The notes under the pieces were generated by a model. That model made no database searches, was not told where the DNA came from, and saw only the letters and a program-made list of their open reading frames with translations. Position numbers and translations under genes: made by a program. A stretch of 63,972 bases of DNA, counting the filler, from Stramenopiles sp. TOSAG23-2 (Eukaryota), in NCBI GenBank assembly GCA_900128395.1. It is 3 parts of 3 records of this genome, joined end to end, with 100 filler letters (N's around TTAATTAATTAA, not from the genome) between each part and the next. Parts side by side here need not be neighbours in the genome. Positions count along the whole stretch, not along the records: positions 1 to 22,738 come from LT649501.1; 2 more parts are not named here. One strand, 5' to 3'. Below, one piece after another: positions 148-55,051 of this stretch; the first letter of the stretch is position 1, and the number at the start of each line of letters is the position of its first letter.

Positions 148-2274
148 TTAAAACTCACATTTTCCTCCATCATAATCACACTCTTTAGAATTACAACTTG
201 GATCACAATAATTATCCTTATTACCTTCCTCCGACCAACAATATTTACTACATATTTCTTCACAATATTTACCATAATTTTCTGCATCATTTTCACACAA
301 CAATTCGTTCCCTGAAAAATATGCCTCAATTCCTGTATCTTTGATCCAATTTGTAACTTCGTTTGGAACCTCGGTTATATTATTATCTCGAGCATTTAAA
401 TATTTCAAATATTTAAAGTCTGTTAAATACGATGGTAATGTTTTTAATCCACATCTTGCTAAACCAAGAAGAGCAAGATTTGAAGATAAAGTCTCAATGT
501 TTGTTCCACCAGTTTGCGGGATTCTATTACCGTCTAGCAATAAACCTATTATACTTGGTAACTGATCTTTCCCCAAAATACTCGGTAACAAAATACTGTT
601 ATTTCTGATATCAAAGTAAAAAACGTTGGGCAAATAGATATCTTTAGGATTCAATGGCATGCGGAGTCCGATATTAGAACTTGCTTTAATTTCTGTAACA
701 GTTTCGTGTTTCCAAAAACTATCATGAACGTGTGTAATATTGTTGAAACGTATATAAATTCTATTCAAAGATAGAAATCTCGACACATCAACATCAAAAC
801 GTTTCAAACGATTAAATTCAAAATCAATAAATGTCAACTCTTTTAACTTTTCCATATTATCAGGTACTTTCATTAATGGCCCGTTCCGTATAGCTAACTT
901 TCGTAAATTTGTCATTTCAACAATTCCATCTGGCAACATGGTCAAGTTATGGCTTTTAATATCAATCATTGCACAATCACAAGTTGGTATAAACATATTT
1001 TTACAAAATGGAGTTTTAATTTTACATCCATTGTGCCATATCATTTCCGTATGATGTTTCAATAGATCATTACATAATCCATCAACTCGTAATAACGATG
1101 TACCTTGAACGATCACAGTTGTAATTAACATAATACAATATGTAAAACTACTTCCACATACTGCCATCTTTGCCCAACGTGGAAAATATTTATTTTGTTC
1201 CATTTCAATATTTTTGTTTCTATCCATTCCATATATACTTTGGCGCCGTCTATTAATACGTCCGGAGTCTTTGTTTTCTTCTTTTATAATCATTTCATCA
1301 ATATTTGCACGAAATGTTTGAAACAACATAAATCTTAATTTTCCAAATAAGGAAAATCCAGTAATACATACAACTTGTAAAGTAACACTTGGAATTAATC
1401 TTATTCCATACAAAAATATCATTGCCCATGGAACTATTAAAAAGAATAAATCTACAAACATGTCACTAAGAATTTGTATATCACGATCTATCACACGAAT
1501 TGAAGTTCTACGCGAACACCATAATCTAAAACCAAATGAATAACCACGTAAGCCACTTTCAATTACTAAAATAAAACAAATAATAGAAGTAAGTTCATAT
1601 GGTAAATTGCATAAGAAAACACTTCTCAAATTGTAATATTGCCACCAATTCTCAAAGACTTCATATAAAGACAGTTTCCATAGATAATACCGTCCATTTA
1701 AACCAATATTTTTTCGATACATTGATCGAAAATTACTGACAATATTGTGTCGTCCTGCAATATCTCGAGTTCCATAATTTCGTTTTATCCATTTGATCAT
1801 ATATCGTTTCCAACGTATTATAAAAAATAAAATGAGTAATATGTAAAATATTGTAATTACTAGAAATGTCCAAACCCATGGACGTGATAAAAGTGCAAAT
1901 GGTCCGTGCATGTTATATGAATTTAATATAAGGACAACGCCAAAAAATACCGTCACACAAACAAGTAAAAAGAAAATAAAACAACCACGGAAACGCCATG
2001 TATTACAACATGTTAAATTTTCAGCTACATGATTTCGAATAGTATTTATATTACGAGTTTTTTTCCGTTTTACTTTATCTATCTCGTATGTAGTTTCACT
2101 TTTATCTATATGTTTGTCTTTATCTTTTACAACAAGGTCAATTGGTTGGAATGCACTACCATTATGATCATTAGTGTTATTGATAACGATTTTTGTTGTT
2201 TCATTTTTGTTAATAATATCTTTTTCAATGTTTACAACTTCTACCTCTGTTATGGAAATGGAATCATTCTTCAT
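148..2274 (-). CDS. Multi-pass membrane protein with C-terminal leucine-rich repeats and a terminal LNR(Notch)-like Cys motif
   Basis: 708-aa ORF. About 6-7 hydrophobic segments in the N-terminal half. LxxLxLxxNxL repeats (LKELTFIDFEFNRL, LKYLNARDNNI). Ends CDPSCNSKECDYDGGKC, which is LNR-like. Confidence 0.75.
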   Translation of the reverse strand: MKNDSISITEVEVVNIEKDIINKNETTKIVINNTNDHNGSAFQPIDLVVKDKDKHIDKSETTYEIDKVKRKKTRNINTIRNHVAENLTCCNTWRFRGCFIFFLLVCVTVFFGVVLILNSYNMHGPFALLSRPWVWTFLVITIFYILLILFFIIRWKRYMIKWIKRNYGTRDIAGRHNIVSNFRSMYRKNIGLNGRYYLWKLSLYEVFENWWQYYNLRSVFLCNLPYELTSIICFILVIESGLRGYSFGFRLWCSRRTSIRVIDRDIQILSDMFVDLFFLIVPWAMIFLYGIRLIPSVTLQVVCITGFSLFGKLRFMLFQTFRANIDEMIIKEENKDSGRINRRRQSIYGMDRNKNIEMEQNKYFPRWAKMAVCGSSFTYCIMLITTVIVQGTSLLRVDGLCNDLLKHHTEMIWHNGCKIKTPFCKNMFIPTCDCAMIDIKSHNLTMLPDGIVEMTNLRKLAIRNGPLMKVPDNMEKLKELTFIDFEFNRLKRFDVDVSRFLSLNRIYIRFNNITHVHDSFWKHETVTEIKASSNIGLRMPLNPKDIYLPNVFYFDIRNNSILLPSILGKDQLPSIIGLLLDGNRIPQTGGTNIETLSSNLALLGLARCGLKTLPSYLTDFKYLKYLNARDNNITEVPNEVTNWIKDTGIEAYFSGNELLCENDAENYGKYCEEICSKYCWSEEGNKDNYCDPSCNSKECDYDGGKCEF

Positions 2275-4868: not shown

Positions 4869-5406
4869 ATGTGTGGATAAAATTTTATTTTTATAATATT
4901 ATAAATAAATATGTATATAAAAAATTCTCTTATTTATAATTTAAAGATTTTATTTACTCATATTATATATAAAATGCTTTTACTCCCGTTCATTAACATC
5001 TCAAATCAAAAATGATTTTTAAATACTTATTTATTATACTGGTATCATACGTATAAACATATGTGTGTGTCATAGGAAATTATTTATCTATGTAATGTAA
5101 TTACCAGAATATATATATCATCTCCCAGATATTTCGGGTATAATATCATATATATACGATTATACCGAGTATTCGTTAATTTTATCAGTGTACAAAAACA
5201 ACGCTACGAACTTCGTACGAATTTTCGTACGAAGCTTCGTATTTTTTTTTATTTAATAATATAAAAATATATACGCTCGTACGACGTATGATACGTATCA
5301 TATCATAATAATTATCCACACACAAACAATTTTTACATTTTGACACACACATTTTTAATATAAAACCAAAAGACTACCGGTTAATTTTCTCTCTCTCTCT
5401 CTCTCT

Positions 5407-6291
5407 TTACATTGTTGCTTGTTTTTTACCATCGACACCAATAGCTTGAATACCAGCTTCTCTTGCTTTTCTTTTTTTTGTACGTGTTGAAATATCAAAT
5501 TTACTTGGAACAGCATTAATAATATTTAAAAAATCTGGTTTCAAACTTGCACCACCAACTAAAAATCCATCAATATCAGGTTGGTTAATTAAACTTTCAG
5601 CATTATGACCTTTCACGGAACCACCATAAATTATACGTAAATTTGTAGCAATTTCACTTGATAAATTTTCAGTTAAAAATAAACGTAATGCTTCATGTAC
5701 TTCTTGTGCTTGTTGTGGCGTTGCACTAACACCAGTACCAATAGCCCATACAGGTTCATATCCTATAACAATATCACTTTTCCATGCATTCAATGGTATA
5801 GTATCAATAACAGCACGTAATTGATCCATGCATACTTTCAATGTACGGCCATCTTCCCTATCTTTTAACGTTTCACCGATACATAAAATAACTTTCATAC
5901 CAGCTGATAATGCATGTTGTACTTTATCAGCAACCGAAGAAACAGATTCATCATGCCCAAGTCTTCTCGTTTGTTTTCTTCTACGTCTTTCTGAATGTCC
6001 AACTAATGTATATGTAACGCCTGATGCAACGAATAATTCTGCTGTTAATTCACCAGTATATGCACCAAAACCTTTATCGGTTGAAATATTTTGTGCACCA
6101 ACAGCAACATCATTAGTCAATGAATTTTTCACGGTAAGGGTATGCAATGCAGTTGGGAAAACAACTACTTCACAACTTGGGGTGGATTGTTTTTTATTTA
6201 AATTGGATATCCACTCTTGTACTTTTTCTGGTGTACCATTTAATTTCCAATTTCCTCCTACGAAATATTTTTGGGGGGTGGGGGTAGCCAT
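5407..6291 (-). CDS. TPI1: Triosephosphate isomerase with a basic C-terminal extension
   Basis: GGNWK, GHSERR, YEPVWAIGTG, YGGSV and DGFLVGGASL motifs all intact. Confidence 0.97.
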   Translation of the reverse strand: MATPTPQKYFVGGNWKLNGTPEKVQEWISNLNKKQSTPSCEVVVFPTALHTLTVKNSLTNDVAVGAQNISTDKGFGAYTGELTAELFVASGVTYTLVGHSERRRRKQTRRLGHDESVSSVADKVQHALSAGMKVILCIGETLKDREDGRTLKVCMDQLRAVIDTIPLNAWKSDIVIGYEPVWAIGTGVSATPQQAQEVHEALRLFLTENLSSEIATNLRIIYGGSVKGHNAESLINQPDIDGFLVGGASLKPDFLNIINAVPSKFDISTRTKKRKAREAGIQAIGVDGKKQATM

Positions 6292-6382
6292 GTTTTGTTT
6301 TGTTTTTTGGTTTGTTTTTTGGTTTTGGTTGGTTTTGGTTTTGGTTTTGGTTTTCGTTTGGTTTGTTTTGGTTTTGGTTGTT
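6292..6382 (+). repeat. (GTTTT/GGTTTT)n microsatellite upstream of the TPI start codon
   Basis: Seen directly. Confidence 0.8.
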
Positions 6383-6696
6383 GTTTCAATGTTGTGTTTT
6401 TGATGATCGTGTGTGTATATTTGTTAAATCAATGTACATATATGTGGTTCTTGTGTTGAATCTATCATCAGATGACGCGGTGATACATCATATATTATAT
6501 ATTATTGGCATGCTGGCATGGGTCAATCTGGCAATGGTATCTCAATAGTAATGGCTTTTTATTACCCCAATGCTATATCAAGCCCCAATGCTATTCCTAT
6601 GTTAATATATTTAATCTTATATATACCAACATTTTCCAATTTTCAGTAATAGTTGATAGCTCTAAATCTTGAAGCACATCTTGCATGTGCCCGAGT

Positions 6697-6762
6697 GTAC
6701 GTAAATTTTAGATTCCAAAAATCGATTAAGGATATCCACTAACAATTCACTCATTCACACAG
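6697..6762 (+). other. tRNA intron 1 (66 nt, between positions 8 and 9), spliceosomal-type
   Basis: 5' GTACGT; branch-point CACTAAC at 6737-6743; 3' CACAG. Confidence 0.85.
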
Positions 6763-6803
6763 GGCGAAATTGGTTATCGCGTCTGACTTCTAATCAGAAG
6801 GTT

Positions 6804-6883
6804 GTAAGTTGCCCAAAAAAGAAAATTTCCCAAAAAACTGAAAAATTAACACAAAACAAAACAAAAATAAAAAAAACCGACAG
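6804..6883 (+). other. tRNA intron 2 (80 nt, between positions 48 and 49), spliceosomal-type
   Basis: 5' GTAAGT; branch-like ATTAAC at 6845-6850; 3' GACAG; A-rich body. Confidence 0.85.
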
Positions 6884-6907
6884 GCGGGTTCAAGTCCCGC
6901 CTTGGGC

Positions 6908-6918
6908 TTTCTTTTTTT
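6908..6918 (+). terminator. Oligo-T RNA polymerase III terminator-like tract
   Basis: TTTCTTTTTTT starting at the tRNA 3' end (T7 run at 6912-6918). Confidence 0.7.
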
Positions 6919-7077
6919 GCCTTCTAAACGCACCAGTCATCATCTTTACTTCCTGATCTTTCATTTGTGCTAATTTTGAAGTTGAACGGATGTCTAGAAG
7001 TAAAGATTTTTTTTTTTGAAAAAAATGTTATCATAATTTTAGGTATTTTTTACAGCTCTCTCTCCCCCGTCTCACCA

Positions 7078-8019
7078 TCACCCTCCTCCTCCTCCCCCCT
7101 CCTCCTCCTCCCACATATTAAAATATTCCCCAATACGAAATTGCGTTGGTCTACCTTTTAAATTTACATAGTTTGGATTATATCGTTGCTCATCCATGCA
7201 ACGAAAATCAATTGATACACGAGTATTTGTTGTATCATTTGCTATTGTATAATGCTTACATTGATTTCCCCAAAACATTAAACATTCACCATATTCCATT
7301 TCCATCGGTTTAAAATCTTTTTTATCAGGTATCGTTTCAACATATAATGACATTGATTTACAAATATTATTAATTGGAATCCAAAAATTAATTTCAGATG
7401 GTTGATGATGATATTCAAAATCTATATGTGGATGTCCCATTGCCTTTTCACTTGGTGGATTTACACGTAACGTTGGCCTTCGCTGATATATTATCTTATT
7501 ACTTGCTAATTTTAAGGATACAATATCTTTACAAAAACGATTTAATAAAGCATTATATTTTTCAAAAATTTCCATTTCTCTTTTTGTTTTTGAACCATGT
7601 TTACGTGTAATTTGCATATATATTTTATGAAATGGACTGTTATTTGTACGTGTTTCTTTTACATTATTACCTTTTAAAAGATGTATAGTATTGAATGCTT
7701 GTTCAATTATTTGCATATTATCAAAATTATTATTCTGATTCCCATCAATGTTATTATAATTCAATAAAAATTTCTCCTCTAAATTTGCTTCTTTAAAAAT
7801 TTCAATCATTATTTCTCGAAACGGATATTTCTTTACATCATATTTAAAAATCTGCATTGTTCGTGTTGATGGATGTGGTAAATATTTTTCAGGATAATTT
7901 TTCAACCGTATTGGTATATTTGATGATACATTTATATGATTATCTTCATTAGAATTAGTATTAATATTTATTTGGTTGATTATTTCTTCATGATCTACGG
8001 TGGAATTTTTATTTCCCAT
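7078..8019 (-). CDS. StrG-like 2-oxoglutarate/Fe(II) oxygenase-fold protein
   Basis: HxD motif (HIDFEYHHQPSEINFWIP), distal His (QCKHY) and RVSIDFR; N-terminus MGNKNS looks myristoylatable. Confidence 0.65.
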   Translation of the reverse strand: MGNKNSTVDHEEIINQININTNSNEDNHINVSSNIPIRLKNYPEKYLPHPSTRTMQIFKYDVKKYPFREIMIEIFKEANLEEKFLLNYNNIDGNQNNNFDNMQIIEQAFNTIHLLKGNNVKETRTNNSPFHKIYMQITRKHGSKTKREMEIFEKYNALLNRFCKDIVSLKLASNKIIYQRRPTLRVNPPSEKAMGHPHIDFEYHHQPSEINFWIPINNICKSMSLYVETIPDKKDFKPMEMEYGECLMFWGNQCKHYTIANDTTNTRVSIDFRCMDEQRYNPNYVNLKGRPTQFRIGEYFNMWEEEEGGGGGG

Positions 8020-8687
8020 ATTTTTCTTAAGTATTATTTTCTATAGTTTGATCGAAATTTTATGAATGGATTGTATATAATTCTTATCTTCTATGTTGTT
8101 GTTGCTATATCTGGATATAGATCGCAATACAGAGTAATAAATAATTAATATCAAAAATGTATGTGTGTATGTGTATTTCAATTATATTAGAATTATAATA
8201 AAAAAACTGCAATAAATTAATAAGAAGACGCGAGATGATTTGATGCATCACTTTTGGTGCGCTTTGCTTTTTTACATCGCAAATCCAATACTGTGGCATT
8301 ATAAATAAAAATTAAAACTACACAGTATTGGAAAAAATGAGATCAAATGAGTTCCATATTGTCGTTGTATTCCTTATGTACAACACTAAAAAAAGCCCTA
8401 GCATAGCAATACCATGTAATGTGAATTTCTAGCATGGGAATATAACCTGTTTCAACTAATGGCCACCAGATCACCAAACACCGAAACAATTCTAAAATCT
8501 TCATAAAATAACACTACACACTATTAAAATTACAAACTACATAATATATATGTATAATAACAAATACTATAAACACATACAGACATGATAGAGACAGTAC
8601 AAACATTTCATATATATATATATTCAGTGAGATACAAGATAATACATACAATATTATAACAGAATATAAGAATACAATAATTTAAAC

Positions 8688-8960
8688 ATGACAAAAGGTA
8701 CAACTAGTTTCGGTAAAAGACATTCTAAAAGTCATACAATATGTCGTCGTTGTGGTAAATCTTCTTTTCACATCCAAAAGAAACGCTGCGCTTCGTGTGG
8801 CTACCCTAAAGCTAAAATGCGTAGTTACCATCATCATGCCAAAGCACTTCGTAGACGTTGCGAAGGTACAGGTAGAATGAGATACAAACGTAATTTACCA
8901 AGAAGAGCTAAAAATGGTTTCCGTGAAGGTACTAAAGCAAAACGTGTAGCACGTAACTAA
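8688..8960 (+). CDS. RPL37: 60S ribosomal protein L37 (eL37)
   Basis: [12 protein letters not shown]...CRRCG...CASCGYP...GTGRMR signature. Confidence 0.98.
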
Positions 8961-9782
8961 ACGTATGGATATACATGTATGTATATATATATATATTTTG
9001 ATGTATGATATAGTTAATAAAAAAAATACTGATAATATAATATATATATATGTATATGTAGCATGCAAATAGGTTTATGTAAGGATAGGTTTTTTACTTT
9101 TATATTGAAGTAATGGATTGTAATACAACAACAGCAATTGATATATATATATATATAAATAATTATATACGTATATGAACACGCGTAATTGAAAGATACT
9201 AGTTAATTCACATGTATAAAATGTTATATGAATGATTTCTCAAGGACTGGTGTTTTTTAAAAAAAAATATGAAAAAAATGTTTAATATGTGGTATCTATA
9301 GACATGCCGTTTATAGATTTACACAGAGATGTACGTAGGTGTTAATCTCTCTTGAAAGTTAAGAGTGTTGTGTGTGTGTTATAATGTATTTTGTTAATGT
9401 AAAAGTACACGTTAGTTTGAAATATATATATATATTTTTATACGGTATGATGTGCGGTGATTCCTTTCTCTTGAATATTCCCCTCTGTATATATTGTTCT
9501 TTGTATTTTTTATTTGTTTATCGGTATAATATATATATGGTATGATATGTACACCAGACTAAAAAATATATAATATTCAAATATAAATGATATAAATACC
9601 ATATTCTACAAAAAATTTTTTTTAACACATCTCCTCACACACACACACAAATCTCGCCTACCTCCTAACACCAGATCACCAGATAATAGCGGATACATCA
9701 TAGATTCATACTCGTATATAATATATATATATAACACGGGGCAGGTATCGAATAGGAAGCTGGTGCAAGATTCGCATTCCGC

Positions 9783-15809: not shown

Positions 15810-17549
15810 ATGGCACAATGCCAAAAGTTTCGCCTTCTATTTAATATTAAATACTATAAAATATTAAAATGTTTTTTTTTGCTTATTACTTTTATTAATT
15901 GTCTAAGTTTTTGTTTAGGTCAGTGTGACAATGGTACGTTTTACGTTGCGGCAACAAATAAATGTGAAAAGTGTCCTGTTGGTACATTTAATACTGACGG
16001 AAATGCATCTAAATGTCGTGCATGTCCATACGGTTACATCGGTGAAACGGAAGGTCTCAGCGTATGCGTTAAATGCGACAAACCAGAGAATTGTCCAGTA
16101 GGAACGTTTAACACATTATCGTCAACACAAGTAAATATACGTAATGGAAACAAAATGAAACAATACAACAACTCAGAAGCAATCTCTAAACCACCATCAC
16201 ATTGTGACGAAGATATAGGTGACGGATGGAGTATGTTGTATGCCATGTTATTTACTAGTTTGGGTATATTAATATTCCACTCGTGCTTCATACAGACGTT
16301 GATTTATTTTCTTTCCTGCTGTATTCATAAAGAAACAGCGAGGGTCAAGGTCTTAGCCCGTTTGGACAAGCTCCAGAGTAACTGGGGGTCCTGGGAAGGT
16401 GATAATGTAGACGATCAAGAACTTGTACCGCCAAATCCATCCGCATTTGGAGCTGCGTATACTCTTGCATTTATTCCTATTTGTGCATATACAATATATC
16501 AATTGATTTTTTCCAATAACCCAAGATGTTCTGCTGGATTGCAAATTTTAAGTCCAATTCGTGCGAATGGTACAATGAACTGGACAATTGAACTACCTAC
16601 AGTTGCTGATACGGTATGCACCACATTTGTCAACAAAAATACTATTGGTTTTACAGAGACTGATGCTGCACCCCATTTAATTGATGTGGGAAAGTGTAAT
16701 AAAGTAGTATGCAAAGAATGCAAATTAGATGCGGTAAATGAACTTTCGTTTCAAGTTCCATATATTGCACAAGTTGCAAAGGTCATTTATAAAGCGCCTG
16801 TAGCTGCACCTGATCAACCACCTCAAGTTTCATGGGCGTATATACGGCCTAAAAATGGTTCCTGGGCATTTAATGATAATGCTGAAATTGTTCAAGATTT
16901 TCGTGCTCGAGAATCATTCTTTCAAGACAAAACAGTAGGGAGAAGACAAGGGGTTAAAGTATCACGTGATACTGGATTGTTGGCCCATAGTGGTTTTGTC
17001 ATTGAAGCGGATGCACCGCGTTCGACTGCTTATATGGAAAGTCAAAGCATAACTTATAACTCTAACTCTTATTGGACATTACGAATTCGAATATCACGAG
17101 AAGGAACCGTGCAATATGTTGAAAAAGCATATTTGCAAGATTCTGTACAGTTATTTTTCGCTGTTATTGCGGGTGTATCCGTTGGTTTTTCGTTTTGGGT
17201 TGGTGCATTTCATGGATGGTTGGTTATAGTAATTAATGCCGTTAGAAAGCGTTGTTGCAAGCCAAAAGAAAATTATAGTTTGAAAGATTTAAAAAAAAGT
17301 AAATCAGACATACTGAAAGATAGAATAGGCAAATTGGAAAATAAAAACAATAATTTGGAGTATAAAATATTAGAACTTACGACATTACTAAGGAATCATG
17401 GCATCGTTAATAAGACTAATAAAAAGCCGGAAGAATCAAAAGACGTAAATGATGATAACGAAGAAGAAAGAAATCCATCAGTCGTGCCAGACAAGGAAGC
17501 TACTACTTCAAATTCAGCAGAAAATAATACTAGCATGGAATCGATATAG
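15810..17549 (+). CDS. Cell-surface membrane protein with Cys-rich GCC2/GCC3 (ephrin-receptor-like) repeats, TM segments and a coiled-coil tail
   Basis: Signal-like hydrophobic N-terminus; CEKCPVGTF and CRACPYGY repeats; three later hydrophobic segments. Confidence 0.7.
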   Translation: MAQCQKFRLLFNIKYYKILKCFFLLITFINCLSFCLGQCDNGTFYVAATNKCEKCPVGTFNTDGNASKCRACPYGYIGETEGLSVCVKCDKPENCPVGTFNTLSSTQVNIRNGNKMKQYNNSEAISKPPSHCDEDIGDGWSMLYAMLFTSLGILIFHSCFIQTLIYFLSCCIHKETARVKVLARLDKLQSNWGSWEGDNVDDQELVPPNPSAFGAAYTLAFIPICAYTIYQLIFSNNPRCSAGLQILSPIRANGTMNWTIELPTVADTVCTTFVNKNTIGFTETDAAPHLIDVGKCNKVVCKECKLDAVNELSFQVPYIAQVAKVIYKAPVAAPDQPPQVSWAYIRPKNGSWAFNDNAEIVQDFRARESFFQDKTVGRRQGVKVSRDTGLLAHSGFVIEADAPRSTAYMESQSITYNSNSYWTLRIRISREGTVQYVEKAYLQDSVQLFFAVIAGVSVGFSFWVGAFHGWLVIVINAVRKRCCKPKENYSLKDLKKSKSDILKDRIGKLENKNNNLEYKILELTTLLRNHGIVNKTNKKPEESKDVNDDNEEERNPSVVPDKEATTSNSAENNTSMESI

Positions 17550-18080: not shown

Positions 18081-19320
18081 ATGAGTACATATAGAAAAAT
18101 TGTTGTATTACCAGAAAAATATGGCGATAGAAATTTTGAAACTGCTACGGCAATTAAAACCGTGGAAATTGTTCCACCTACTCCTAATCAAATTCAAGTG
18201 AGATGTACACACACTGGGATTGAAGCAAGTGATATTGTGCAAATGGTTGGTGGGTATGGTCGATTAGCTGGTAAAAAGCCAGTTTCTTCATGGAATGGTA
18301 CGGTACAGCTTGGTGATATGGGATGTGAAGGTACAGGTGTAATAACTGCTGTTGGATCAAACGTAACTAACTTTCAAGTTGGTGATGCTGTTGCTTATAC
18401 AACACCTTCTTTCCGTGAATATACATTAATTGATGTTAATACTGGCAATGGAATGTCTAATATTCCAGCAGCATTTAAAATACCTGCACCAACACCTGAA
18501 TGGACGGCTGTACCAATCTCTGCTTTGACTGCAACAGGTGGTCTAGAACAAGCATGTTCTATCAAAAGAGGACAAAATGTATTAGTCACAGCTGCTTCAG
18601 GTGGTACTGGTCACGTAAGTAATACCTGGTATACATATATCAATATAATAAGTATATAAGATCTTTTTCAGGAAATTTTTTCTCTAACATATTTTTTCAT
18701 ATAATTATTTACATATATAGATCGCAGTTCAATGGGCAAAAAAAATATGGGGATGTCGTGTTGCTGGTACATGTGGAAGTGCTGAAAAAGCAAATATGTT
18801 GAAAAGATTGGGTTGTGATGTTATTGTAAATTATCGTGAAGATGATGTAGAAACTATACTTGCTAAAGAATTTCCAAATGGATTTGATGTTGTCTATGAA
18901 GCTGTTGGTGGTAAAATTGGGAATATTGCCAGACGTTTACTTGCACCAAATGGTACATTAGCACAAATTGGGTTTGTCAGTACAGATTATAGCGGTGCAA
19001 CGAAAGGAGCATCTGATGGTGCCCCAGTAAAACTTAAGGATGGACAAAGTGAAATGTTTTATTTTGTTGGTGATTGGAAAGGTGCTAAAAAGACAAAGGA
19101 ATCATGGGATTTGTTAATTCAACGAACGATTGATGAAGTTGCGAAAGGTAATATTGAAATTGTTATGGATGATACATGCAATAGTTTTACAGGCCTTGAA
19201 GGTGTATACAAAGCACAAGCAAGGATGCGTGAAGGAAAAAATATTGGAAAAATATTTGCAAGTATTAATCCTGATTATGCTGCTGGATATGCAGCTGGTG
19301 TAAAAGCAAGTAAACTATGA
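18081..19320 (+). CDS. Zn-independent MDR oxidoreductase (PTGR3/ZADH2-like, quinone reductase family); two exons (18081-18614, 18721-19320); C-terminal SKL
   Basis: Removing intron 18615-18720 (GTAAGT...CTAAC...TAG) gives VLVTAASGGTGH/IAVQWAK; FDVVYEAVGG and NIGK motifs; ends ASKL. Confidence 0.9.
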
Positions 19321-46193: not shown

Positions 46194-48410
46194 ATGAGTA
46201 ACAATGTTGATGCTACTGCTGCATTTGAAGCGGAAAAAGAACGAGAGGCATTTTTAGAGTCTATTTTTAAACCTTTTAAAGCATGGTATAATAAAGAAGG
46301 AACAAAAGAGGAAATAAAAGAAAGGAAAAATATGTTTGGACGTTTCCCAATATTTTGGAAAGGGTTAAAGAAATGGAAACATTATGAAGGTGCATATGCT
46401 GCATACACTCAAGCTAATAATAGTGGTGGTAATAATAATAATAACAACAACGCAGTTAAAGCTACTTCTGACACAACTACTAATATTGCAAATATGGTAC
46501 CAACCGCTGTTTCTATTAATAATAATACATCTACCAACACCACAGCAGCAGCGGCTACTGATACTACAGGAACGAAGAAACGGAAGCGAAAAAGCAGATG
46601 GGCGGCAGAAACGAATACCAGTGTCGTTCAAGATTCCAACAAATCTTCGCGTTGGTCAATCCCAACTGCTGATAATTTGACAGGACGAAAAAGCAGATGG
46701 GCGGCAGAAACGAATACCAGTGTCGTTCAAGATTCCAACAAATCTTCGCGTTGGTCAATCCCAACTGCTGATAATTTGACAGGAAAAGTGAAGATATTGC
46801 CTAGTGGTTTTATTGTACCTGCTGGTTTAACTATGAAAGATGAAGATGTTTTTGTTTACAAAATTCGATTGGAGCAATTAAAAGAAAAAATGATGCGCGT
46901 TCCAGAAGAAGCCTCTAAAAGAGACGCTGATCCAGACCGCTCGCCATCTCCAGAACCAGTTTATAACATGCAAGGTATCCGTACAAACGGTCGTCTACAA
47001 CGAATGACGGAAGCATGTGAAAAGGAAGAGGAAAAATTAATGATAGGCATGTTGCGTGCAGATCCAACATTGCGTAATACATTTAATTATAGGATTGTAC
47101 GTAAAGTTTATTGCCCCGTCAAAGAGTTTCCACATTATAATTTCATTGGTTTAGTGTTAGGACCTCGTGGTGCAACGCAAAAACAAATGGAAGGGGAAAC
47201 TGGGTGTAAAATTGCAATACGCGGTAAAGGTTCGATCCGTGCTGGGAGGAACGTAAGGCAAGGTTCACAACATGAAAGATCACAAAATGAAGATTTGCAT
47301 GTATTAATAACTGGGGACGATATTGATATGGTAGAACGGACCATTGAATTAGTGAAACCTTTGTTACGGCCTTTAGATGACGATCGTAACATACATAAGC
47401 AACGTCAATTGAGGCAATTAGCTTTGATTAATGGTACTCTTCGGGAAAGTACATATTGTAATTATTGCGGAGAAGAAGGACACGCACATTATGCATGTCC
47501 AAAACGAAAACAAGCTGAGATGGCAAAATTGAAGCAAGTTAGGTGTGCCATATGCGGGGAAGTATCACACGTAACTGCAGATTGTAAATATACGAAAGAG
47601 GAATTGCAAAACAAAAAGAGAAAAGTTGATGGTGATTTTCAAAATTTTATGGCCGGTTTAACTGGAACTGGTCATTCCGATCAAAATGCCACTGCAGAAT
47701 ATACTGCGACGCTTGATAGTCATAACAAAAACAATACCAATAATAATAATGAAGTAATACCAATATTAAACGTAGTTGCTACTGGCGCCTCACAAAACAA
47801 TGCAACTTCTCAAATTAATAGTAATAATAATAGTAATAATAATAATAACGACCCGCCACCAATTTTAAATTATGGCATGGCAATGCAAGCACCGCCGCCA
47901 TTGTTGGGAATGCAGCAGCAGCAACAACAACAAGGACCACCGCCAATTCTAGGAATGCACCGTGGAGGAGGTTTGCCACGTGGTATTGGTATGCCATCAA
48001 GAGGTAGAGGACGTGGTAGAGGACGTGGTTCAGCCGCAATGATGAAGCCAGCATGGATGATTCAGCAAGAAAAAGAAGCAGCAATGAAGGAACAAGAAAG
48101 TGGCCAAGATATGATCGGCAAACCACTTGAAGACAATAGCAATAGCAACGGACCTCCACCATCTACTAACAATAACAATAATAATATGCAACAGATGAAT
48201 CAATTCCAACCACCACCTATAAACCCACAAATGAATCAATTCCAACCTCCGCCACAAATGGCTCAATTTCAGCAACAACAATACATGCCACCAATGGGAA
48301 ATTTCATGCAACAACCTCCGCCACAAATGCCAATGTATGGAATGTATCAACAACCGGTACCAATGAATACTAAGAAATATGCACCAGATGTTAGTGATTG
48401 GGGAGATTAG
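46194..48410 (+). CDS. SF1: Splicing factor 1 / branchpoint-binding protein
   Basis: RKRKSRW ULM, RSPSPEPVY, KH domain NFIGLVLGPRG...KIAIRGKGS, QUA2 QLRQLALINGTLR, two CCHC knuckles, Pro/Gln tail. Confidence 0.95.
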   Translation: MSNNVDATAAFEAEKEREAFLESIFKPFKAWYNKEGTKEEIKERKNMFGRFPIFWKGLKKWKHYEGAYAAYTQANNSGGNNNNNNNAVKATSDTTTNIANMVPTAVSINNNTSTNTTAAAATDTTGTKKRKRKSRWAAETNTSVVQDSNKSSRWSIPTADNLTGRKSRWAAETNTSVVQDSNKSSRWSIPTADNLTGKVKILPSGFIVPAGLTMKDEDVFVYKIRLEQLKEKMMRVPEEASKRDADPDRSPSPEPVYNMQGIRTNGRLQRMTEACEKEEEKLMIGMLRADPTLRNTFNYRIVRKVYCPVKEFPHYNFIGLVLGPRGATQKQMEGETGCKIAIRGKGSIRAGRNVRQGSQHERSQNEDLHVLITGDDIDMVERTIELVKPLLRPLDDDRNIHKQRQLRQLALINGTLRESTYCNYCGEEGHAHYACPKRKQAEMAKLKQVRCAICGEVSHVTADCKYTKEELQNKKRKVDGDFQNFMAGLTGTGHSDQNATAEYTATLDSHNKNNTNNNNEVIPILNVVATGASQNNATSQINSNNNSNNNNNDPPPILNYGMAMQAPPPLLGMQQQQQQQGPPPILGMHRGGGLPRGIGMPSRGRGRGRGRGSAAMMKPAWMIQQEKEAAMKEQESGQDMIGKPLEDNSNSNGPPPSTNNNNNNMQQMNQFQPPPINPQMNQFQPPPQMAQFQQQQYMPPMGNFMQQPPPQMPMYGMYQQPVPMNTKKYAPDVSDWGD

Positions 48411-53991: not shown

Positions 53992-55051
53992 ATGATTGCC
54001 TGCAGGAGTCTAAATATATATAGATTTATTTCGTTAAAATATACGAAGTCTAATCAATCAATAAACATGTTGTTGCATAGATGTATATTAACTTCCAATA
54101 AAAGAGATGCCAACGCTGTAATTGAATCTACTGCATTTGTAGACCCGACTGCGAATGTAGGATTAGATACTTATATAGGACATTTTGTACATATTGGTCC
54201 AGATGTAAATATTGGTGATGGATGTAAAATTTATTCACATTGTACAATAACAAATTGTGATGTTGGAAAACGTGTTATTTTAAATTCTGGAATACGAATA
54301 GGACAGGTAAGTATATAAGAGCTTCTTCGAACTAATACATATAATGTCTTGCTAGTACTTCAATCTGGCATATTTTTTCTTAAACATAGAACAGCTATGA
54401 TGAACGCGTCTTAGATACCATGCTAGACTTTTGATTTTTAATGAAATTAACTTCATACGCATTTGCCTTCTGAGCGTTTTATGTTTATTAATTCACAATA
54501 TTTTATTATTTTTTTTTCGTACAAAATATATATATTTGATTGCTAACCTTTACCAAATATTTTTACAGGATGGCTTTGGTTTTCATATTGGTAAAAATGT
54601 GAAGAAACCCCAAGAATTGCGTGTTCAAATAGGTGACGATGTTGAAATTGGTTCTAATACGACTATAGATCGCGGAAGCTGGAGAGATACTGTTATTAAT
54701 TCCAATACAAAACTTGATAATTTAATTCAAATTGGTCACAATGTGATAATAGGTGAAGATTGTTTGATTTGCGCACAGTCTGGGATTGCTGGTAGTACAA
54801 CTATAGGTAATGGCGTTCTGATCGGTGGTCAAGTTGGAATTGCGCAACATTTAAATATAGGTGACGATGTACGAATTGCAGCAAAGAGTGGTGTGATGCA
54901 TGATTTGCAGCAAGGAAAAGCATATGGTGGATACCCTGCAGTAGAAGTTAATAAATTTCATCGACAAACATTATTTTTGAAAAGTAGTGTAGAGAAGTCA
55001 AGAAGAAAGCTCCACACATGTTTTGTTACATCCACCTATGGCACAAAATAG
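53992..55051 (+). CDS. lpxD: UDP-3-O-acyl-glucosamine N-acyltransferase (LpxD); two exons (53992-54306, 54569-55051)
   Basis: Hexapeptide repeats. Splicing intron 54307-54568 (GTAAGT...GCTAAC...CAG) restores [34 protein letters not shown] and GGQVG motifs. Confidence 0.92.
54390..54478 (+). ncRNA. Candidate intronic box C/D snoRNA
   Basis: Box C ATGATGA 54397-54403, box D CTGA 54470-54473, possible D' TTGA 54431-54434, short terminal stem AAC(A)GC/GCGTT; lies about 95 nt upstream of the 3' splice site. Confidence 0.55.

Follow-up and report, generated by a model that had tools for sequence, protein, structure and literature searches.

Which RNA polymerase transcribes a tRNA gene whose two introns resemble those of mRNAs, and which machinery would take these introns out? 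The question is raised by a locus in the window, by which we mean the whole 64-kb joined stretch of DNA that was analyzed and in which all coordinates are given. According to the textbook position, also found in the excerpted text of a recent review (PMC13149111), tRNA splicing proceeds without the spliceosome. If a tRNA were to need the spliceosome, spliceosomal introns would have a new class of host RNA. A preliminary description of the locus proposed that its introns are adapted to RNA polymerase III (Pol III) transcription, and this proposal was examined together with the structure of the gene, its splice signals, its promoter and a closely related allele.

A tRNA-Arg(UCU) gene predicted in three exons

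A nuclear tRNA-Arg(UCU) gene composed of three exons (8, 41 and 25 nt) and two introns (66 and 80 nt) is a well-supported prediction for positions 6689-6908 of the forward strand (Table 1). When the exons are joined, ARAGORN returns a 74-nt cloverleaf that it calls tRNA-Arg(TCT), with an acceptor stem of 7 bp (one of them G-U), a D stem of 4 bp, an anticodon stem of 5 bp, a variable loop of 5 nt and a T stem of 5 bp. Exon 1 pairs at seven of seven positions with 6901-6907, one G-U pair included, and this was the sole acceptor partner found within 600 nt.

Table 1. Features of the split tRNA gene and its flanks, in positions of the window
Feature	Position	Strand	Description
TATA-like box TATATATA	6618..6625	+	64-71 nt 5' of the tRNA; putative start-site element, for TATA-assisted Pol III or for Pol II
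Exon 1	6689..6696	+	8 nt, GCCCGAGT; 5' acceptor-stem strand and T8; part of the ARAGORN cloverleaf once joined
Intron 1	6697..6762	+	66 nt; between tRNA positions 8 and 9; absent from the related contig L013
Exon 2	6763..6803	+	41 nt; D arm, anticodon arm, variable loop; ARAGORN and Rfam tRNA alignment
A-box remainder GGCGAAATTGG	6763-6773	+	in exon 2
Anticodon TCT	6789-6791	+	in exon 2
Intron 2	6804..6883	+	80 nt; junction of variable loop and T stem; an insert in the variable region of the Rfam alignment
Exon 3	6884..6908	+	25 nt; T arm, 3' acceptor strand, discriminator T
B box GGTTCAAGTCC	6887-6897	+	in exon 3
T7 run	6912-6918	+	3 nt past the tRNA 3' end (6908); candidate Pol III terminator

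In the uncut window, ARAGORN found no tRNA and Rfam found nothing at its gathering thresholds. With a permissive threshold, the Rfam tRNA model matched 6760-6905 at 26.5 bits, under the gathering score of 29, and this score is low because intron 1 displaces exon 1. Were the gene to prove functional as predicted, standard tRNA finders would be missing genes of this kind, as the empty ARAGORN result and the subthreshold Rfam match illustrate. A scan of the 64-kb window for T arms with an acceptor partner returned the gene at 6689-6908 as the only split-tRNA candidate. Two further T-arm-like matches were rejected, having no credible acceptor partner. No other RNA gene was found in the window by Rfam at the permissive threshold, nor was any other tRNA or Pol III gene that could have served for comparison.

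Splice signals of the two introns

The comparison set for splice signals and base runs consists of two mRNA introns in the window, at 18615-18720 and 54307-54568, set against the two tRNA introns. Each of the mRNA introns has the yeast-like signals GTAAGT and CTAAC and a terminal YAG, with the branch point 21 and 32 nt from the end, respectively, and each is flanked by more than 125 open codons per side in phase 0. Pfam domains run across both sites: ADH_N is followed by ADH_zinc_N from profile position 5 across 18615-18720, and Hexapep is present in both exons flanking 54307-54568. On this evidence we take the two to be real mRNA introns. Across about 34 ORFs of at least 150 codons, no other convincing mRNA intron was found (the remaining candidates of the heuristic mRNA-intron search were mostly false), which makes the window intron-poor. 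Against this background, two introns within one gene of 74 nt represent a striking density.

The tRNA introns show the same kind of signals. Intron 1 starts with GTACGT and carries ACTAAC at 6738-6743; intron 2 starts with GTAAGT and carries TTAAC at 6846-6850; the branch A is separated from the 3' end by 20 and 34 nt, respectively. Both end in CAG, and in both this CAG supplies the first AG downstream of the branch motif. Both introns thus display what is expected of the U2 type, namely a GTRNGT-like 5' splice site, a YTRAY branch motif and use of the first AG. The probability that both boundary motifs fall by chance at the positions fixed by the tRNA structure is approximately 5e-10, given a noncoding composition of A = T = 0.36. 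The polypyrimidine tract is the one element of this set that is missing from intron 2. In its place lies the A/C-rich stretch remarked on in the preliminary description; the last 37 nt are 73% A, 24% pyrimidine and 8% T. The last 37 nt of intron 1 are 54% pyrimidine, compared with 62-65% in the mRNA introns. Organisms whose branch sites are strong can do without a polypyrimidine tract. An ORF elsewhere in the window (46194-48410, forward strand) contains SF1 helix-hairpin and KH domains, as in the branch-point binding protein SF1, and fits strong branch-site recognition in the organism.

Joining the exons restores the tRNA-Arg(TCT) cloverleaf, and a natural DNA allele that is free of intron 1 reaches 50.6 bits with the Rfam tRNA model (see below). 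Since the signals match those of the mRNA introns, no bulge-helix-bulge was found, the cloverleaf is restored and an allele lacking intron 1 exists, the reading of both inserts as U2-type spliceosomal introns (GT-AG, with a strong branch site) in a tRNA gene is well supported.

The competing view would treat both inserts as tRNA introns of a non-canonical kind that the tRNA splicing endonuclease cuts and a ligase seals, with the spliceosome uninvolved. Multi-intron tRNA genes with interruptions at odd positions do occur in red-algal, nucleomorph and archaeal lineages. As described in excerpts of PMC3978253, tRNAs of Cyanidioschyzon merolae, nucleomorphs and Archaea resemble the gene studied here in being interrupted away from position 37/38, sometimes more than once, and in being missed by standard finders. 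The introns of those tRNAs require a bulge-helix-bulge and lack GT-AG and branch signals, whereas the tRNA-Arg introns are the opposite in both respects. In the predicted minimum-free-energy folds, both for the whole precursor and for the single introns with their flanks, no bulge-helix-bulge was present at either junction pair, and intron 2 was nearly unpaired. The endonuclease route is thus unlikely. The full set of GT-AG, branch-site and first-AG signals, as in mRNA introns, and the location of the introns at positions 8/9 and at the border of variable loop and T stem, not at 37/38, also speak against it. Overall, we consider this route very improbable.

Two minor observations concern the introns themselves. 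In the predicted precursor fold, GAGUG at the junction of exon 1 and the 5' splice site (6692-6697) pairs with CACUC in intron 1 (6748-6752). Such a pairing would mask the 5' splice site or draw the intron ends together; it may also be a product of chance. A second copy of either tRNA intron was not found in the 64-kb window, where the matches did not go beyond low-complexity stretches of 10-14 nt.

A related allele that lacks intron 1

The allele free of intron 1 was obtained from a pattern scan of metagenomes, which gave 46 matches at 44 loci, and is carried by a metagenome contig of 3811 nt (L013). L013 is collinear with positions 5256-9060 of the window at approximately 96% identity. Exactly 6697-6762 is missing from it, the junction being ambiguous by 1 nt (a G), while the T7 run is kept, as are intron 2 (80 of 80 positions identical) and every exon position (74 of 74). 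Because the contig includes intergenic sequence as well as genes from either strand and retains intron 2, it represents DNA and not a spliced transcript. The Rfam tRNA model matches its tRNA from end to end at 50.6 bits (E 4e-9), treating intron 2 as an insert.

The exactness of the gap argues that intron 1 is a discrete unit varying between close lineages, and one that was probably gained or lost very recently. It also lends indirect but strong support to the predicted borders of intron 1 as those used in vivo. Intron loss via cDNA is usually biased to 3' introns. As the intron that differs here is the 5' one, gain is mildly favored over loss. If this reading is correct, the pair of alleles with and without intron 1 would capture a rare and recent event of intron gain or loss in a non-coding gene.

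The divergence between the window and L013 is distributed unevenly around this site. Approximately 48 differences, among them indels of 5-55 nt, fall in the intergenic stretch 6292-6688, and the flanking ORFs differ by 1-2%, as opposed to zero differences over the 338 nt of 6763-7100. The exact start of the identical tract is the intron-1 site; the tract comprises exon 2, intron 2, exon 3, the T7 run and approximately 190 nt of 3' flank, after which differences resume at about 2%. This tract may be the recombination footprint of the gain or loss of the intron, but it may also be the result of a sweep or of a strain-chimeric contig. A long C/T-rich tract (CTCTCTCCCCC...CCTCCTCCTCC) at 7057-7112 on the forward strand spans the 3' end of an ORF on the reverse strand (7078-8019), and the first renewed differences between the window and L013 (7101-7113) lie in this region.

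The other 45 of the 46 scan matches (43 of the 44 loci) were judged by their flanks to be uninterrupted tRNA-Arg genes of unrelated organisms and were set aside. They were retrieved because the degenerate GTNNGT of the pattern also fits the ordinary T stem GTGGGT. Two of these unrelated, uninterrupted tRNA-Arg(UCU) loci (L022 and L028) have a T7 directly after the gene, the same terminator layout as in the window gene. An exon-2 pattern had no matches in genome contigs and none in viral contigs. Matches of L013 to the Rfam families CrcZ and rivX were far under the gathering scores, overlapped the A-rich intron and were read as chance.

T runs, base composition and the candidate terminator

The preliminary description based the proposed adaptation to Pol III largely on T runs, stating that neither tRNA intron has a run longer than four, that both mRNA introns hold runs of six or more and that a T7 follows the tRNA. 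All of these statements were borne out. The longest T run is TTTT (6706-6709) in intron 1 and three in intron 2, and no run of five or more (T5+) occurs anywhere in 6689-6911. The mRNA introns contain several, namely T5, T6 and T6 in 18615-18720 and T6, T5, T9 and T5 in 54307-54568.

The weight of these observations was assessed against a chance baseline of 19,312 nt of noncoding window sequence, taken on both strands. By chance, T5+ runs are absent from 67% of noncoding stretches of 66 nt, from 62% of those of 80 nt and from 44% of those of 146 nt, and their absence from the tRNA introns is not significant alone. Judged by the density in the mRNA introns (7 T5+ runs in 368 nt), 2.8 runs would be expected in 146 nt, with a Poisson probability of about 0.06 for finding none. 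When A runs are counted as well, the tRNA introns have no T run and six A runs of at least five, versus seven T runs and no A run in the mRNA introns (Fisher p 0.0006, for runs that are not independent and come from two introns of each kind).

Intron 2 is a real compositional outlier, T-poor and A-rich on its sense strand (A49 C14 G7 T10), with five A runs of 5-8 nt. A T count of at most 10 per 80 nt was reached by 302 of 33,706 noncoding stretches of that length (0.9%), an A count of at least 49 by 142 (0.42%) and both together by 47. Intron 2 of L013 is identical to that of the window and thus gives no independent replicate of this composition. The position of the T7 run is also uncommon, as T runs of at least seven were found within 10 nt after 750 of 37,426 random noncoding positions (2.0%); for runs of at least five, the proportion was 7.2%. 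The arrangement is that expected of a Pol III terminator, with a T7 just downstream and no comparable run inside the putative transcribed unit.

Runs of four T terminate Pol III in some eukaryotes. Yeast experiments in vitro, as excerpted from bioRxiv 10.1101/2021.08.27.457903, gave no release of Pol III at T4, intermediate release at T5 and full release at T6, so that the T4 of intron 1 need not stop the polymerase, although the requirement in this organism may differ. Overall, the adaptation of the introns to Pol III is only suggestive, because the absence of T5+ runs has a probability of about 44% by chance, intron 1 contains a T4 and two mRNA introns were compared. A set of hints does point to Pol III: the T-poor intron 2, the reversed pattern of A and T runs, the placement of the T7 and the intact B box. 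The idea of terminator avoidance leads to a prediction that can be tested genome-wide.

Promoter layout and transcription of the gene

The A box of a tRNA gene corresponds to tRNA positions 8-19, and the B-box consensus is GGTTCGANTCC-like. As the preliminary description pointed out, intron 1 splits the A box and leaves the B box whole. A stretch of 66 nt lies between T8 (6696) and GGCGAAATTGG, and in the genomic context the first position of the A box is G instead of T, with the remainder lying downstream of the tRNA 5' end by 74 nt. The B box, GGTTCAAGTCC, is intact, and its distance from exon 2 exceeds that in the joined tRNA by 80 nt. Measured from start to start, the A box and B box are 124 nt apart, versus 45 nt in the joined tRNA, and a spacing of 124 nt is long for a type 2 promoter. 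In L013 the A box is undisturbed, and the internal promoter is ordinary save for a B box that is 80 nt further off.

Canonical transcription starts, as known from yeast, are measured from the A box and lie about 18-20 nt upstream of it. With the A box moved by 66 nt, a start guided by it would lie within intron 1, and the transcript would leave out exon 1. For the gene to work, an upstream element would consequently have to fix the start. The TATA-like box TATATATA is a candidate. It is kept as TATAAATA in L013 and lies in a block of 129 nt (6560-6688) with nine substitutions and no indels relative to L013, the alignment being indel-rich further upstream. Fission yeast and plants have Pol III promoters that are assisted by a TATA box. 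At -71 to -64, the box fits Pol II equally well.

We see about an even chance that the gene yields a Pol III transcript with an upstream-fixed start from which the spliceosome removes both introns. In that pathway, Pol III would start upstream of exon 1, at a site set by the conserved TATA element together with TFIIIC on the B box, would pass both introns without meeting a T5+ stop signal on the sense strand and would terminate at the T7, 3 nt beyond the tRNA. Both introns would be excised by the spliceosome from an uncapped transcript, as for U6 snRNA of fission yeast, and the ends would be trimmed by RNase P and RNase Z. The A-rich, T-poor sense strand of intron 2 would stem from selection against Pol III terminators within the transcribed unit.

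A fuller account can be offered tentatively, and we hold it with less than even confidence. It would make this the first nuclear gene for a tRNA that needs the spliceosome, with a twice-spliced Pol III precursor whose first exon is 8 nt plus a leader and whose older intron has been cleared of T runs so that Pol III can pass. Intron 1 would have been newly gained, by reverse splicing of a lariat into the tRNA or into its precursor and then by reverse transcription and recombination, with the identical tract 6763-7100 as a possible footprint of this recombination.

Transcription could also have passed to Pol II, an alternative that we regard as unlikely though of real weight. Pol II would start from the upstream TATA box (6618-6625), which is kept in L013 inside the indel-free 129-nt block, and would produce a short, capped, non-coding precursor that is spliced co-transcriptionally and from which RNase P and RNase Z release the tRNA. 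The T7 and the T-poor intron would then be leftovers of a Pol III past, or chance. Such a start would accommodate the displacement of the A box by intron 1, given that an internal-promoter start would lose exon 1; an 8-nt first exon would be spliced more readily behind a leader of about 30-40 nt; and the absence of T5+ runs is, as stated above, not significant. There is also a precedent in tRNA-Sec of Trypanosoma brucei (PMC2943599), a nuclear tRNA that is transcribed by Pol II and still processed, although it comes from a polycistronic unit and lacks a spliceosomal intron. A T7 placed only 3 nt beyond the tRNA, which has a 2% probability by chance, does not fit this alternative well, nor does the intact B box. 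Intron 2 has no T-rich tract of the mRNA type and lies in the 0.9% T-poor tail, for which Pol II transcription would provide no selection, and the L013 allele, apart from intron 2, has the ordinary Pol III layout of A box, B box and terminator. In six metatranscriptome (RNA) runs, 0.17-0.26 of the sampled words of 6300-7100 were present, a signal that could come from the UTR of a neighboring gene and was given no weight.

The displaced A box bears on a further possibility, namely that the window allele is disabled or dying. Intron 1 would recently have landed in a working gene of the L013 type, transcription would be poor or would start at the wrong place, and other copies would supply the anticodon. 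The existence of an intron-1-free allele in a lineage that is about 96% identical, the shift of the A box by 66 nt and the drop in Rfam score from 50.6 to 26.5 bits are in line with this scenario. The three exons are, however, intact and identical to those of L013 at 74 of 74 positions, and the splice signals of intron 1 are complete (GTACGT, ACTAAC, CAG). We consider a disabled allele improbable.

Relation to known introns in non-coding RNA genes

By its predicted structure, the gene would belong with the spliceosomal introns found in non-coding RNA genes. The closest parallels in the material covered by the excerpted review PMC5855946 are the U6 snRNA genes of fungi, Schizosaccharomyces pombe among them, which carry mRNA-type introns (Tani and Ohshima 1989, 1991, cited therein). 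As in the tRNA-Arg gene, GT-AG introns with a branch site interrupt a small non-coding RNA gene, and U6 is a Pol III product with no m7G cap that is spliced nevertheless. The presence of the U6 intron varies between related species, as that of intron 1 does between the window and L013, and reverse splicing has been proposed as its origin (PMC5855946). The two cases differ in that a tRNA host lies outside the spliceosome's active site, which makes the argument from 'proximity to the catalytic centre' inapplicable. They differ also in promoter layout; the B box of fission yeast U6 is intronic (Frendewey et al. 1990, cited in PMC5855946), whereas that of the tRNA-Arg gene is exonic and it is the A box that is split from T8.

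Spliceosomal introns are also recorded in U1, U2 and U5 snRNA genes and in ascomycete rDNA, according to the same excerpts (PMC5855946). Like the tRNA-Arg introns, they reside in genes that do not encode proteins and have a sporadic, lineage-specific distribution. Their transcripts are made by Pol II or Pol I, unlike in our preferred reading of a Pol III precursor, and the list in the excerpted text of this 2018 review does not include tRNA. Introners of marine protists, in the excerpted PMC11282704, offer another likeness in their recent gain and their presence or absence between close lineages. Introners have target-site duplications, often terminal inverted repeats, and many copies; intron 1 shows a 1-nt ambiguity at its junctions and a single occurrence within the 64-kb window.

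Within the literature searched, which lay apart from subscription journals and supplements, no report of spliceosomal introns in tRNA genes was found. A phrase match in a Mesodinium preprint was rejected, as the matched text reads 'non-spliceosomal tRNA introns'. Splicing of an uncapped Pol III RNA accordingly has a precedent in U6, while the tRNA host, the first exon of 8 nt and the split A box are without precedent in these sources. If the preferred reading of a Pol III precursor is right, the locus would provide a natural test of whether Pol III transcripts that lack a cap and begin with a very short first exon can be spliced.

Some features of the wider window relate to the organism. ORFs at 148-2274 (reverse strand) and 15810-17549 (forward strand) have leucine-rich repeats with a Notch LNR domain and an ephrin-receptor-like cysteine-rich repeat, respectively, and resemble genes for surface proteins of protists. 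The source organism occurs in marine metagenomes, and its TPI is nearest to a diatom-rich cluster.
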